NCBI GenBank assembly: GCA_964016885.1
Contig: OZ024743.1
Location: 300,948,001-301,012,000, forward strand
DNA length: 64,000 bases
From: Eledone cirrhosa
Taxonomy: Eukaryota
Direction of reading: 5' to 3'
The position numbers were made by a program, and so were the translations under genes. Below, piece after piece: positions 5,900-61,802 of this stretch. Positions within the stretch are counted from its first letter, which is position 1, and each line of letters starts with the position of its first letter. The notes under the pieces were generated by a model. It was not told the DNA's origin and did not search any database. It was given only the letters and a program-made list of their open reading frames with translations.

Positions 5900-6196
5900 A
5901 CTGGCAGGTTTAGCTACCCCTTCCCCCACCAACTTGCCATCACAGATTTACTACTAACTTGTGATGTGACCAATCCTGGTGATTATCTCTTTGACCATAT
6001 ATGGAATTACCCCTTGATAAGTTCGGCTATTTAAATACCAGAATTAATTTTTCAATCAGTACAGAATTAGCCGTCGAAACGGCTTGAGCTCAGCCGTCGG
6101 GGTCTTACTTGTTCCTATTACCCACTCTACTACCCTAAGTATTGAGTACGTTGGTGCGTTATGGTCCACCTGGTTCCTTACCACATTTCCTTCGTT
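5900..6196 (+). mobile_element. Solo 3' pseudo-LTR of the Neptune-type PLE family, ending in (TA)n
   Basis: Homologous to 17875-18177 (3' end of the Neptune-type element) and to 43298-43510 and 42683-42816. Confidence 0.8.
6009..6103 (+). ncRNA. Type I hammerhead ribozyme with U3-A8 core
   Basis: Stem I acccc/ggggt; core TTGATAA; stem II cggcta/tagccg with a ~40-nt loop; GAAA; stem III acggct/agccgt; GUC cleavage triplet. Confidence 0.8.
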
Positions 6197-7309
6197 ATAT
6201 ATATATATATATATATATATATATATATATATATATATATATATATATATATATATATATATATATATATATATATATATATATATATATATATATATAT
6301 ATACATATATATAAATACATATATATAAATAAGTAGTATAATTAGAACAGTTTAACAAGATATCACGTGGAGAAAATAGTTTGTTCAATTAAGTGTTTTC
6401 GTGACAACGGTGCATGAATTCTGAGCATGGATTATAGAACGTTGCTCTGTAAGGAATATATTATTGCATATTCTACATATGCTAGGATGAAACACAGCTG
6501 TAATTTCTGAAAACGTGAACAATGACCACTGATATATAAACTGCGATGCATTAATGAAAATGTTAAGCATTCAGTATGGTTTAAAGTAGAAACACACGAA
6601 TATCATCTTTTAATTAAATAATAACTGTAAACTACTTTAAATACACGTTTGTGAATATTAGGATTGAATATTACAACTAAGATGTTATGGGAACATCAAT
6701 GTTTATATACTATATGTGTTGATTTTATTCATGAAATAGAAACAAACTTACATATATACTTGAATCTGTTTCTCTCTATAACATTCGTACATCATAATCA
6801 ACATTTTAGAAGTGAAAATTGAATTTATTCGATAAACATTCGGCTCAACAGGCCACGAATAAATAAGTTGAATTGAACGTGCAAGAGCTAAGAATTGAAA
6901 CATTTTTGCAAATTACCTTTTAGATCATATTATCCACTTCTTTCCCTATCGTAAACAGTAATAACCTTAAAATTATAAAATAGCATCGCCCGCAGGCATT
7001 AGTTAGTTGTTATTATTTAATATTCTTGTCGAAGACTTTAAGGAAAATCAAGATAACAAAATATTATATTGATTTAGATTGTGCTAAAATCTTGCCTGAA
7101 GCATTGCTAGAGAAAGGTAGAGGTTTGATTGTCACTATGCGGGAACCAAAGACGTGAATGGCCTTAATACAACAGATAATGTGAAAGAAGACAATTCTGT
7201 AGCATCGTAAAATTTTGACAAACAACCGTTTTAGCAACTTTCCTCGGGACATAGATCAAGAGCGTGAACCACAACTGAAGACGTCAAAGAAGTGGTGACA
7301 TTCGACAGT

Positions 7310-7730
7310 ATTTGAGCAAGATGATGAAAATAATAACATTGGTAATGATGATGACAATGATGATGAGACGTATAAGAAGGAGATAGAAGTGAATGAGGAG
7401 GAAAATAATGAGAGGGAAAAGTAAGGTGAGGACATAGGCAGAGAGAAGGAGGATTATTATTATGGTCATGTTGATGTTGATAACGTGAATTAATAGAACG
7501 CCAACGTTAATGATGACGATGATGATGATGATAATGAATATGATGATGATGATGATGATAATGATGATGTTGGTGGTGCTGTTGCTGATAATGATCGTGA
7601 GACTGATGATGATGATTATGATGATGAGGATTATGAGGATGACGGTGGTGGTGATGCTGCTGCTGATGATGATGATGATGGCGATTATGATGCAGATAGT
7701 GATGAGAATGATAGTAGTAGGGTTGATGTA
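7310..7730. repeat. Degenerate (GAT)n repeat
   Basis: Read directly; explains the poly-Met ORF at 7510. Confidence 0.9.
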
Positions 7731-8413
7731 AAGATGTTAATTCTGATGCAGCTGATGAATATAAAGAATTTCATTATAGTAGGAATGATGACGTTATTAA
7801 TGTTATTAAGGAATTGTAAAAGGTTAGAAGTAAGAAAAAGAAAACAAAAATGATGAATTATTTTTACATTGAATGTAAACAATTCTCTAACGAGCTAATC
7901 TGATTGCTAAAATGTAAATTTAGCCAATGTATATAAATATATAATAAATTACATTCCCGAAAACCCATCAACATTAAACGCACAAAATCCTTGTGATAAA
8001 ACTAAGAGTAATAATTAGAAAATATGTTGATTTAGCTAGAGAGAATATGTTGACAGTGCGATAAAAAGTATTATATCGTTATGATCCTTAATTGTTTGAA
8101 ATACTAGTGTTTACTTTTCGAAGAAAACAAGTAAACCACATTAAAACGATACGTAATTCTTCTGTAAAGTAGCCATATAAATTTTATTTTGTTTCAAATC
8201 AAGACTACAATGTGAAATTCATTAATATATATATATATATATATATATATATATATATATATATATATATATATATATATATATAGAGAGAGAGAGAGAG
8301 AGAGAGAGAGAGAGAGAGAGAGAGAGAGAGAGAGAGAGAGAGAGAGAGAGAGAGAGAGAGAGAGAGAGAAAGAAAAAAGAGAATCAGTGTTACGACGAAT
8401 GGAATTTATTGGA

Positions 8414-8505
8414 CATATTACAATCGGTTCTCTGGCGACCAGCTCGAGGCACAATTTATTTGATGATCGAACCTGACTCTGAAAATCGCAAGTTCCTCAG
8501 ATACG
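8414..8505 (-). ncRNA. Hammerhead ribozyme, left arm (GAAA mutated to GAAC)
   Basis: cgtat-CTGAGGA-long stem II (gcga/tcgc)-GAAC-cgatt-GTA-atatg. Confidence 0.55.
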
Positions 8506-8588
8506 TTTTGATTCTACGAAGCAGATTTTGCTATGTCCTTTTACATCATGTAAAAGGACATAGGAAAATCTACTTCGTAGAATCAAGA

Positions 8589-58663: not shown

Positions 58664-59898
58664 AATATTATTATTATTATTATTATTATTATTATTATTA
58701 TTATTATTATTATTGTTAATTTCTTTTCGTTGATATATTTGTTCTGTTATAATTTTTCTGGTATGATTTCAGAAAGAATAGTGAGTGACGTTATATATTT
58801 CGCATGATTAGTACATAACTATTACGCTCTTTATCTACATTCCAAAATAATTAACATATGTATCAGAAATGTGTGTAGTTATTTAAATACATCACATTAT
58901 TTCACTAACTTAAATGACATCGACAACTGCTAAGCAAGAATTATGATTTCCATGATTCTTCGAAATGTATTCTGTATTCCCGTCCATTGCTGTGGAACAG
59001 TTAATCTATTATCAAGCTATATCTGAGTTCTGCAATTAATATCTAAATGCTCAAATTCCTTGCTGGAACTACAAGACGTGTATTCTTTAACCTATTGTAT
59101 ATGATATCTTGAAATTCCGCGTTAAATTACTTATATGAATCATTAGAAACGAACTGATATATATCTTATTATTATACCCGCCTTGCAGTGTATTAATGAA
59201 GTATTATTTTTGTTTCCTTTTTTGTCGGAGTTTATATTAACTTTTTAATTTCAAAGTGACTACGATATTTAGTTTCCTGATTGTACATTCAGAAATAAAT
59301 TGCATTTTAGACAAAACAATTAAATTTCAACATTCAATACTTGTGGCAGTCATAATTCGTATGGCGGTAAGTTAATGTAATGAAATTTACGTATCGAAAT
59401 GAATGTATAGTTCTTCCTCAAAACACCCCCCCCCCCACACACACACACGCACACTAACACACACACACGCACACACACACATATACGCATACACACGCAC
59501 ACACATATCTATCTATATATATATATGTAAATAAATATATACGGGTGTGTATGATTGTGTATAGAAAATTATATTAAAAAAGGAATTCCAACTTTGTCTG
59601 ATTAACTAGTTTTATTTACAATCCTTTAAAATTATAATGATATTATAATAATATAGCATAGTAGAATATTAAATGTTAATTGAACAAGTACTTCCATGCT
59701 TATAATTTTAATGGACTGTAAATATAACGAGTTTGTCAGCCAGAGTTATATATATATATATTAGAAAGTGAGGTTTTTTTTACAAAATGAAAAATAACCG
59801 AGGTGTCCTACACGAGTGAAAGTATAAAGAAAAAGAGATGAAATCGAAAATGCAACTGGAGTCTTATTTTTAAAAAAAATATATATATTTATTTGGTT

Positions 59899-59937
59899 CC
59901 TTTACCGGTTCCGCAGTCCTTCTGCTTTTCAAAAGGT
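59899..59937 (-). ncRNA. Minimal U3-A8 hammerhead, GAAA mutated to GGAA
   Basis: acctt-TTGAAAA-gcag aagga ctgc-GGAA-ccgg-TA-aagg. Confidence 0.6.
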
Positions 59938-60535
59938 GAGTTATTAAAAAAAAGCCTTCGTGAGCCACCTTTTTTTAAGGTAAACATATTCAAAAACACA
60001 CACACACACACACACACACACACGCACGCACACACACAAGCACACAAATAAACACACATATCTTTACTTTCTTTATTCAATAGAAAATCTGAATTCTGTC
60101 ATCCCAGCGAACTAACCATATTCTCCCATCCCTTTCTCTTGACCATTATCTTTTACTCATCAAAAAATTCTCTAAAAAGGCTACAGAATGGATTTCCAAA
60201 TAAGGGCACAAAAATTTAATGAAAATTTGTTCACGTGACAGCCATAATTTCATTTGTAACCAACCAAAAAAAAGCCTTCGTGAGCCTCCTTTTTTCAAGT
60301 AAAAAGAAATTCAAACACTCATATATGAAAAAACAACCTGTGACAACCTCGGCCCCTCTTATTTGAAGAACTATTGTAACGCGAACTGGCGCGAAATTTA
60401 TTATAATTATTGACAAACCAATCAAATTTCTTCTCGAAAAACCTGGCATTTCGAGCCACTTTTTCCATATAAAACAAGTAACATTCAGAGACCAACCAGA
60501 TGTGAGAACAACCACAGACCCTCCATCTCAACTCA

Positions 60536-60573
60536 CCTTTTGAAAAGCAGAAGAACTGCGAAACCGGTAAAGG
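60536..60573 (+). ncRNA. Minimal U3-A8 hammerhead ribozyme
   Basis: cctt-TTGAAAA-gcag aagaa ctgc-GAAA-ccgg-TA-aagg. Confidence 0.78.
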
Positions 60574-61802
60574 AACCAAATAAATATATATATTTAAAAA
60601 AAATTTTCGATTTCATCTCTTTTTCTATATATATATATATATATATATATATATATATATATATATATATATATGCACACCAGTGTTAGTAGAAAGTTCA
60701 TACCTCCGATATTTAATGTGTACTTAAATTGTTTATGCGATTCTATTTGATGAGAAACAAAGTTGAACAGTTATATCACCCGGTTTGGTTGTTGTTCTTT
60801 CAGTATACCATAACATATATTTTGATTTAAAACGTTTCCACACACGTTTACGTAATAGTGACTGATGCCTCTCAGCCTAAAAGCATTTTTTCGGTTACTT
60901 TAATGTCTTGTTTCATAATAATCTCACTGCGAAACCTATATATGTAGAGCAATTTTACGAACCTGAAAATCTTCGTTGTTGTTCGCTGGCTGTCATAGAT
61001 GCATATAGCGCTAATATACACGTTGTCATCCTCACTTTATGAAGAACTAGTCTAATGCATTTGTAGTATTCACAAATGTATTATATAACTGAACTTTCTT
61101 TAATGTAATAAAGAATTTGGTACTAATGTGAAAGACATTTGCAAATAATGTTACAAACTATTCGATAGATGTAGAAAAAAATTTACAAGTTATGTGTAAG
61201 CGGTGAAATTTATGTGGTTGTATGTCGGTATGTAAGTATCATGTATGTATGTATGCATGCATACATTTATATATATATATATATATATGTGTGTGTGTGT
61301 GTGTGTGTGTTTATACATATATATATACTTATATATATATATATATATATAATATATATATATATATATATATATATATATATATATATTATATCCTTGC
61401 ATGTAATTATATGTTTGTGGAAGAATGTATGCGAATGTACTGCAAATGCAATAGGACATCGGAAATTAATAAAGAATACAAATATATACAATTATATTAG
61501 TATAACGTAGACAATACTTACGGACAAAACGTATATACATGACCATATATACACACACACACACACACACACACACACACACATATATATATATATATAT
61601 ATATATATATATATATATATATATATATGTAAATATACATACATCTATATATATATATATAAGCAAAAGGAATATGCAATGTGTTGCTAATTCAACAAAT
61701 ATAAATGATTATAACTGATTCAGAGCACTCGATAGTTTTTCTGGAGTGTAATATTCAATGATATTAAATAAATGGAAACTATATTTATGAAACGATATTT
61801 AT

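Follow-up and report, generated by a model that had tools for sequence, protein, structure and literature searches.

Introduction

The reverse transcriptases (RTs) of Penelope-like elements (PLEs) are the sister group of telomerase. A hallmark of PLE insertions is a one-sided tail, a signature already known from published surveys (PMC8557442), and the only biochemical study, on the Poseidon element, shows that RT starts internally at two sites, which delimit the tail; the available text of that study does not name what places them (PMC11167929). Here we analysed PLE ends in a 64,000-nt stretch of the Eledone cirrhosa genome (positions 300,948,001-301,012,000 of contig OZ024743.1; hereafter the window), which is rich in (TA)n runs, pieces of LINEs (long interspersed nuclear elements) and PLE ends.

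In the Poseidon study, RT needs RNA located 3′ of its start sites, and the enzyme, predicted to be a dimer, cuts and extends both target strands (PMC11167929). PLEs of another clade, Hydra, are recognised by an RWK motif, a DKG motif changed to DKT, a CxCX5C linker and the lack of CCHH in the endonuclease (EN) (PMC8557442). We report that Hydra-type families in the window, otherwise unalignable, carry a conserved, covarying bulged hairpin, that the hairpin occurs twice in the 5′ untranslated region (UTR), and that both termini of inserted copies keep a fixed offset from it.

Results

A bulged hairpin at PLE ends

A first-pass annotation had listed ten ACTC...GAGT or GCTC...GAGC stems in the window. 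All ten were located, and nine sit 33-72 nt before a (TA)n run. ACTC-N5-35-THGAGTRC has 9 matches in the window against 0.92 expected (none of 100 shuffles reached 9) and the GCTC/GAGC form has 3 against 0.15 expected. A bare 4-bp RCTC...GAGY stem is frequent (42 plus-strand and 40 minus-strand matches); what sets the sites apart is not the bare stem but its combination with a bulge of 2 nt on the 3′ side, with an inner stem and with a 3′ RC. The full motif therefore reads RCTC, an inner stem of free sequence, a 2-nt U-led 3′ bulge, GAGY and RC.

The sites were sorted into families A (6124, 18107), B (8731), C (27631), D (28147), E (32128), F (61747), G (39542) and H (42260). The stems at 6123 and 18106 belong to one family (A). 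At 28154 the stem is real, with the covarying 5′ arm lying at 28147 instead. Two copies had been missed, one of family A (42730-42755, minus strand) and one of family C (41084-41104, minus strand). The matches at 49605, inside a LINE open reading frame (ORF), and at 35596, without element context, are probably due to chance.

The motif form was set on the window and then tested on 800 kb of held-out sequence, composed of 80 evenly spaced 10-kb stretches of the genome. It matched 63 times there against 12 times in reversed sequence, and 48 of the 63 matches lie 30-79 nt before (TA)5, compared with 4.2% of random positions; there are 20 sequence clusters. By rough extrapolation from 56 tailed copies in 800 kb, the 3.0-Gb genome would hold ~200,000. 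An Rfam scan of the window gave no meaningful match among the best 150 of 202, with repeat-driven microRNA and small nucleolar RNA matches present and no hammerhead, and the twin-hairpin region of locus L294 had a best E of 3. The hammerhead ribozymes (HHRs) mentioned below are putative motifs read from sequence.

Covariation of stem, bulge and inner pair

Covariation was counted in 57 rows (65 before near-copies were collapsed), made up of 27 non-redundant metagenome hairpins, picked blind to bulge and inner pair, and 30 rows from this genome, which were partly selected by motif and include the probable chance site 49605 as well as L046, which is unplaced. The two conserved arms served as anchors for the columns, without structure fitting or a covariance model. 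Aligning 48 hairpins with MAFFT gave no gaps in the loops, and the arm-anchored columns were used in place of that alignment.

The bulge is U-led in 27/27 metagenome hairpins. When a 2-nt bulge is assumed, inner pair 1 is Watson-Crick in all 27 (17 C-G, 10 U-A), and at a bulge of 0, 1 or 3 it is so in 0/27. Of all 57 rows, 51, 38 and 40 show pairing at inner pairs 1, 2 and 3, respectively, a result equalled in none of 5000 permutations, while the outer pair is G-C in 37, A-U in 15, G-U in 4 and A-C in 1. Because the rows share ancestry, switches were counted on an RT tree of 29 rows, on which U-A and C-G exchanged at inner pair 1 in at least two independent events. One family (L031) has a doubly changed outer stem, GTTC/GAAC, and retains the bulge and the inner stem. 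The inner regions measure 8-46 nt from arm to arm. The annotation's central proposal, a conserved covarying cis-element at the ends of otherwise unalignable PLE families, is thus borne out for the full motif, which exceeds its controls in positional enrichment as well as in covariation.

Two termini at fixed distances from two hairpins

Copies of the hairpin families stop at two sites, each shortly before a hairpin. Across families, the end of tail-less copies falls 3-9 nt short of hairpin 1, and that of tailed copies falls 6-10 nt short of a second one, hairpin 2, so that the tail corresponds to the stretch between the two. The hairpin had been proposed to mark the terminal tail; it is indeed tied to the ends, but does more than lie near the terminus: it opens the tail, and beyond the tail end comes a twin.

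Among family A copies, 15 stop 5 nt ahead of the hairpin and 16 stop 72 nt past its start, and families C, E, F and N behave alike. Of the 115 TA-ended copies of family A, 112 have a TA run that begins 5-9 nt ahead of hairpin 1 or 6-8 nt ahead of hairpin 2, and the same two sites are used by 60/62 such copies of family F, 33/37 of S142 and 5/6 of G2. Both termini fall at a TA-like spot offering TA microhomology. Head-to-head inverted pairs of hairpin families have exactly one tailed end in 90 of 92 cases (two loci overlap one place). A copy lacks the very hairpin that marks its end, as an action of the hairpin on the template would predict.

A survey blind to the motif screened 2261 junctions for families with two TA-bounded ends, which were read by eye. 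Among the matches listed, it gave A, B, C, D, E, F, N, S073, S093 and S142, each of which has the hairpin ~15 nt or less from the short end, and also X123, Y090, Z056 and V027, which have tails of 39-60 nt and no such hairpin.

Clustering of 5′ ends at hairpins was considered as well and rejected, since 32 family C starts scatter from beyond -520 to +106 and only 2-3 cases were seen elsewhere. A few copies do begin 6-8 nt before hairpin 2 (L259, L276 and window 18377). A family D end peak at -56 is an artefact of the TA run within its HHR.

Twin hairpins in the 5′ UTR

In full-length elements, the order is pseudo-LTR (LTR, long terminal repeat), HHR, hairpin, tail, 5′ UTR and ATG (family C, L086), which makes the tail the start of the next tandem unit. 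Hairpin 2 follows the tail end in families A (L213), S142 (L017), G2 (L167, L263, L274, L275) and F (L262, L264, L267, L269, L270, and with variants L268). The two hairpins are spaced 76-100 nt apart (76, 78, 90, 93, 95 or 100 by family), and the tailed end lies 6-8 nt before hairpin 2 each time.

The presence of hairpin 2 was also tested as a prediction for families B, E and D, by searching the genome for their tail ends followed by a 5′ arm alone. Recurring continuations were found in 7/15 cases for B and 14/24 for E, with one match for D. Five continuations were fetched, of which four contain the whole hairpin 2 (L379, L380, L381, L377) and one is a decayed copy (L378). Those of B and E run into the start of a Hydra-type ORF, and that of D into no such ORF.

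Family D, which is ORF-less, keeps the HHR and both hairpins. The stem at 18377 represents hairpin 2 of family D, placed in the 5′ UTR, which is why no HHR precedes it, and the 1.2-kb unit starting there shows no recognisable Hydra ORF. Family D (window 18377-19567 and 27715-28214; L377) resembles a 1.2-kb non-autonomous Hydra derivative without the RT-EN ORF.

Distribution among PLE clades

Every hairpin family linkable to an ORF (A, B, C, E and F of the listed sites) is of the Hydra clade as judged by its encoded motifs. Family C has RWR, DKT and CxCX5C in a single ORF of ~684 aa from ATG, with weak GIY-YIG Pfam matches; A and F each have RWR and CxCX5C. B and E are assigned by the N-terminal RW motif only, and N and S142 by adjacent ORFs. 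In the EN core, read by eye, A and F have one Cys and C has two. The HHR motif in the pseudo-LTR, the insertion in (TA)n and the one-sided tail, as far as sequence reading tells, are Hydra-type traits too. No firm ORF link was found for D, G, H, K056, Q097, S062, S093 and S223. A link between family A and the Neptune-type ORF at 14709 was rejected, as these are separate insertions.

The six published Hydra consensuses (PMC8557442) were inspected by eye. Three contain the full motif, namely Hydra-2_Amil from coral, Hydra-2_Ajap and, twice at its very start, Hydra-1_Ajap from sea cucumber; Hydra-1_Amil has a wobble form, Hydra-1_Crog has one mismatch, and Hydra-1_Obim has no motif. Other animals were sampled through the best 80 of 155 Hydra-like metagenome loci, 33 of which gave an N-terminal profile match. 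Hairpin 2 is present in 28/30 loci with at least 55 nt upstream, and both hairpins in 19/24 with at least 130 nt upstream, the misses being three loci cut at or after hairpin 1 and two that show none. There the hairpins lie at about -40 (hairpin 2, -36 to -45) and -100 to -118 from ATG, spaced ~60-74 nt, and 16 repeat ends fall between 7 nt before and 6 nt into a hairpin. Among the viral contigs searched, no relative was found.

The stem had been described as common to Neptune- and Hydra-type PLEs, which our data do not support: the ORF-linked families are all Hydra, and two Neptune-type families have only partial look-alikes and no second hairpin. The Neptune-type family in the window has ACTC-4 nt-GAGC without inner stem or bulge, a single end in 30/30 loci and no second copy. 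The other, U023 (GLKF, DKG, CX4CxxC, CCHH), has ACTC and an inner stem 10 nt after its tail-less end, with no GAGY-RC and, in four full junctions, no second hairpin. These look-alikes, known from two families of this genome only, could be distant homologues of the hairpin. Six 8-mers were also sought in the supplement of PMC8557442, giving 26 matches, 4 in Hydra hairpins and 22 in Naiad or Chlamys files; the latter show no terminal hairpin in the short contexts available, and line breaks in these files can hide matches.

Other PLE families in this genome have signatures of their own. The non-Hydra family X123 has a different, AC-rich tail motif. X123 and its relatives (L123, L058, L365, and a piece at window 42040-42130) have a ~995-aa frame with DKS, CX4CxxC and CCHH, and two ends; their subfamilies share a tail-start motif, GTTTCRACACACG, AC-rich like the Poseidon start site. 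Neptune-type U023 (L023:3293-3322) and Z056 (L056) have GTG...ACAC-CTC ~10 nt after the tail-less end, with window sites at 43771-43896 and 59761-59888; this pattern is possibly a counterpart, in Neptune, of the hairpin. The two Neptune-type families compared above each encode a short TATATA exactly where copies end (tandem junctions of L375, L376 and L358), which may offer pairing to a (TA)n target. In an abundant HHR family (L001, L041, L057, L059, L064, L066, L079), GTTC...TT-GAAC overlaps HHR stem I, and copies end ~130-160 nt later.

Features of the window

The features read in the window are collected in Table 1. The family A hammerhead (6009-6103, 17995-18086, 43405-43500) has a U3-A8 core, a stem II loop of ~35 nt and a palindromic stem III loop; a U3-A8-type variant has been described before (PMC4209133). 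The family C 3′ UTR holds a TA/TG microsatellite of 1.2-1.6 kb that moves with the element (window 21196-22812, 25519-26708). No HHR or ORF is linked to family H, and no HHR core was found upstream in its relatives (L031, L053); in these, a folded-looking stretch lies 130-170 nt upstream of the hairpin, with no Rfam match. A VWC-domain exon lies at 36441-36914 on the minus strand (Pfam PF00093, E 1.3e-7), and we take it to be CCN-like. The PLE ends of the window probably lie in introns or flanks of a host gene.

Table 1 PLE features of the window, in window coordinates (., both strands or not assigned)
Feature	Position	Strand	Details
Family A HHR motif	6009-6103	+	U3-A8 core variant, long stem II, in pseudo-LTR; sequence reading
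Family A hairpin 1	6124-6149	+	UU bulge and inner stem of 4 bp; tail at 6119-6195, followed by (TA)n 6196-6303; Hydra ORF linked; tail-less copies stop 5 nt before hairpin 1
Family B inverted pair	8380-8802	.	Tail-less minus arm; tailed plus arm, hairpin 1 at 8731-8757
Neptune-type PLE	14709-17211	+	DKG, CX4CxxC; truncated ahead of its HHR; served as control, with one terminus and without the full hairpin
Family A, second copy, tailed	17226-18177	+	Hairpin 1 at 18107-18132, CU bulge
Family D hairpin 2, 5′ UTR position	18377-18395	+	Opens 1.2-kb unit closing in D pseudo-LTR 19379-19567
Family C inverted pair	20545-27692	.	Hydra-clade RT-EN ORF 23034-24770 (-) and 24684-25208 (+); tail-less end 20545; HHR 27560-27612; hairpin 1 27631-27651; tail to 27692
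Family D inverted pair	27715-28214	.	Minimal HHR 28016-28085; hairpin 1 28147-28184; tail to 28214; tail-less minus arm stops near 27715
Family E	32016-32215	+	Minimal HHR 32016-32069; hairpin 1 32128-32169; tail to 32215
Family G hairpin	39525-39544	-	Outer stem 6 bp, inner pair mismatched; ~45 nt after HHR-like GAAAC box
Family C, second copy	41043-41644	-	Hairpin 1 at 41084-41104
Family H hairpin	42260-42286	+	6-bp inner stem, UC bulge; sequence reading
Family A inverted pair	42685-43513	.	Tailed minus arm, hairpin 1 42730-42755; tail-less plus arm ends 43513
Family F	61662-62935	.	Minus arm: minimal HHR (core 61852), hairpin 1 at 61725-61747; plus arm: Hydra-type ORF fragment 62107-62935 (CxCX5C)

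Discussion

Given a covarying motif that is laid out as twins in the 5′ UTR of the next tandem unit and keeps a fixed offset from both termini, we conceive that the twin hairpins on balance probably serve as RNA docking sites for the RT-endonuclease, setting the two internal RT starts in Hydra-clade PLEs. Each protein subunit would bind one hairpin, the nicked 3′ end of (TA)n would anneal to a short UA-rich stretch 3-9 nt upstream of the hairpin, and copying would run away from the hairpin. A start before hairpin 1 would yield the tail-less end and a start before hairpin 2 the tailed end, each insertion using both, so that tail length would equal hairpin spacing. A more far-reaching proposal, to which we give slightly less than an even chance, is that an identical bulged hairpin pair, from corals to this animal, programs integration as a whole: one dimer subunit would sit on each hairpin, RT would start internally 3-9 nt upstream, one RNA would prime both strands, and the spacing would set the tail length.

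Several results weigh against docking by twin hairpins. Family C, which is young and has many intact ORFs, shows a sharp tailed end at +62 without a full hairpin 2, only a decayed 3′ half being present at the expected place. In hairpin 2, pairing at inner pairs 2-3 is frequently absent. Taken by themselves, the hairpins fold weakly (-3.6 to -9.5 kcal/mol, with z above -2 in most cases), the bulged fold is the minimum-energy one at 4/9 window sites, and 2/3 twin regions fold otherwise; weak lone folding is what a site bound by protein, and not a roadblock, would be expected to show. Wobbles leave the folding strand undecided, with 11 sense G-U against 7 A-C at inner pairs 1-3. About 10 further metagenome repeat ends lie elsewhere than at hairpins, some of them being contig ends or between-family alignments. 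Non-Hydra families without twin hairpins still keep one tail per inverted pair (9/10 and 13/13), so the one-tail rule itself is no pointer to these hairpins; since such families make one-sided tails without them, the twin hairpins would be the way in which Hydra elements carry out a step general to PLEs.

A looser positional test was made with the bare stem. ACTC stems occur at 65 of the 1080 TA junctions, whereas control zones gave 19 and 18. This excess becomes weak at the family level, where 418 groups give 10 against 6 and 6 and the stem ranks 47 of 256, although the clustering is crude and one of the 418 clusters holds 343 junctions. The bare 4-bp stem was therefore dropped as a marker of TA junctions.

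The annotation had suggested a cis-acting signal for RT docking or EN resolution, and these remain the two best readings; the supposed sharing between clades is not supported. Resolution at the DNA level seems unlikely to us. The GIY-YIG EN would recognise the motif in a longer tandem complementary DNA, as a single-stranded hairpin, a cruciform or a GAGYRCTC near-palindrome, and cut the TA-like site just upstream, resolving both ends. The tail has been ascribed to EN-mediated resolution (PMC8557442), and the Penelope tail is reported to be needed for EN recognition by an enzyme that cuts AT-rich sites on both strands (PMC11167929). Termini at TA-like spots, the few copies that begin 6-8 nt before hairpin 2 (L259, L276, window 18377) and the undecided folding strand fit as well. 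However, the 8-46 nt spacer, along with an inner stem that covaries and a bulge on one side only, suits a single strand and not duplex recognition, 5′ junctions such as the 32 scattered family C starts do not cluster at hairpins, and in the one PLE tested both tail ends are RT start sites (PMC11167929).

It is more doubtful still that hairpin 1, or its GAGYRC half, positions the enzyme alone, the distal end being measured from it or set by the next UA-rich primer site, with hairpin 2 serving translation or ribonucleoprotein assembly near the start codon. The sharp distal end of family C, with its decayed half hairpin, and the nearly fixed place of hairpin 2 in other animals, -36 to -45 from ATG, would agree with such a division of labour, but tail length tracks hairpin spacing across families, which a fixed ruler would not give. 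Least probable is that the motif acts in the 5′ UTR, a region with internal promoters in other PLEs, as a promoter or in translation, with ends adjoining it only because the flanking UA-rich stretches prime best: both termini do show TA microhomology, but UA-rich stretches are everywhere and yet 112/115 A and 60/62 F ends use the two pre-hairpin sites, and covariation with a one-sided bulge is no promoter trait.

If docking on twin hairpins is right, they likely tell the copying enzyme where to start, which would explain the long-puzzling one-sided tail. The element is a defined one of 20 nt with naturally supplied compensatory variants, and docking predicts that when the hairpin is moved, the start moves. 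As PLE RTs are related to telomerase as sisters, an RNA element fixing the start bears on how template definition arose. Marking both ends and the start codon region, the motif is also an aid to annotation of Hydra-clade elements. The annotation's remark that it lacks prior description agrees with our search: neither the motif nor the twin hairpins are described in the literature searched, including the available text of PMC11167929, PMC8557442, PMC4209133, PMC3846280 and bioRxiv 10.64898/2026.07.22.740005, a scope that leaves aside most subscription papers, Repbase reports and theses.

Compared with known systems, the hairpin acts like an RT recognition stem-loop and differs from one in position and duplication. 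The LINE stem-loop lies within the copied part, and RT starts 3′ of it at the RNA end. The 3′ stem-loop of stringent LINEs and short interspersed nuclear elements (SINEs) is likewise a short hairpin with an internal loop or bulge (UnaL2, PMC1636434; ZfL2, PMC4176376), kept by autonomous and non-autonomous partners and proposed or shown to be read by RT (PMC1636434, PMC4176376). Our elements share the covarying bulged hairpin and its retention in ORF-less family D. They do not share the placement: there are two copies, each 3′ of an internal end, outside the copied part and left out of the copy that it marks.

Hydra-clade HHR stem III, often actc/gagt (PMC8557442, File S2), has the same four-base stem letters in the same elements. 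It is part of the ribozyme, directly after GAA and before the cleavage site, with a loop of 1-2 nt. The hairpins here lie ~25-90 nt downstream, have a bulge and an inner stem, and are flanked by C, U or A-rich sequence without GAA. An identity of the two is ruled out by these flanks, by the inner regions of 8-46 nt and by the place downstream of the HHR.

Poseidon PAc (Frangieh et al. 2024) is alike in being a PLE in which two internal starts bound the tail and RNA 3′ of the starts is required, and in cutting an AT-rich target on both strands with a predicted dimer (PMC11167929). It is unlike in belonging to another clade and in having its starts inside the ORF and inside an AC-rich stem-loop; the accessible part of the paper reports no conserved or duplicated motif and no covariation, and bounds the binding motif only to the first 172 nt (PMC11167929). 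The Hydra-clade PLEs of Craig et al. 2021, with RWK, DKT, CxCX5C, HHR and (TA)n targets, are the host elements themselves, alike also in their inverted 5′-truncated partners with a tail at one end (PMC8557442). The twin hairpins are present but unremarked in the consensus file of that study, the word 'hairpin' being absent from the paper text available, and its tails of 30-40 bp compare with tails here of 57-104 nt, bounded by twin hairpins.

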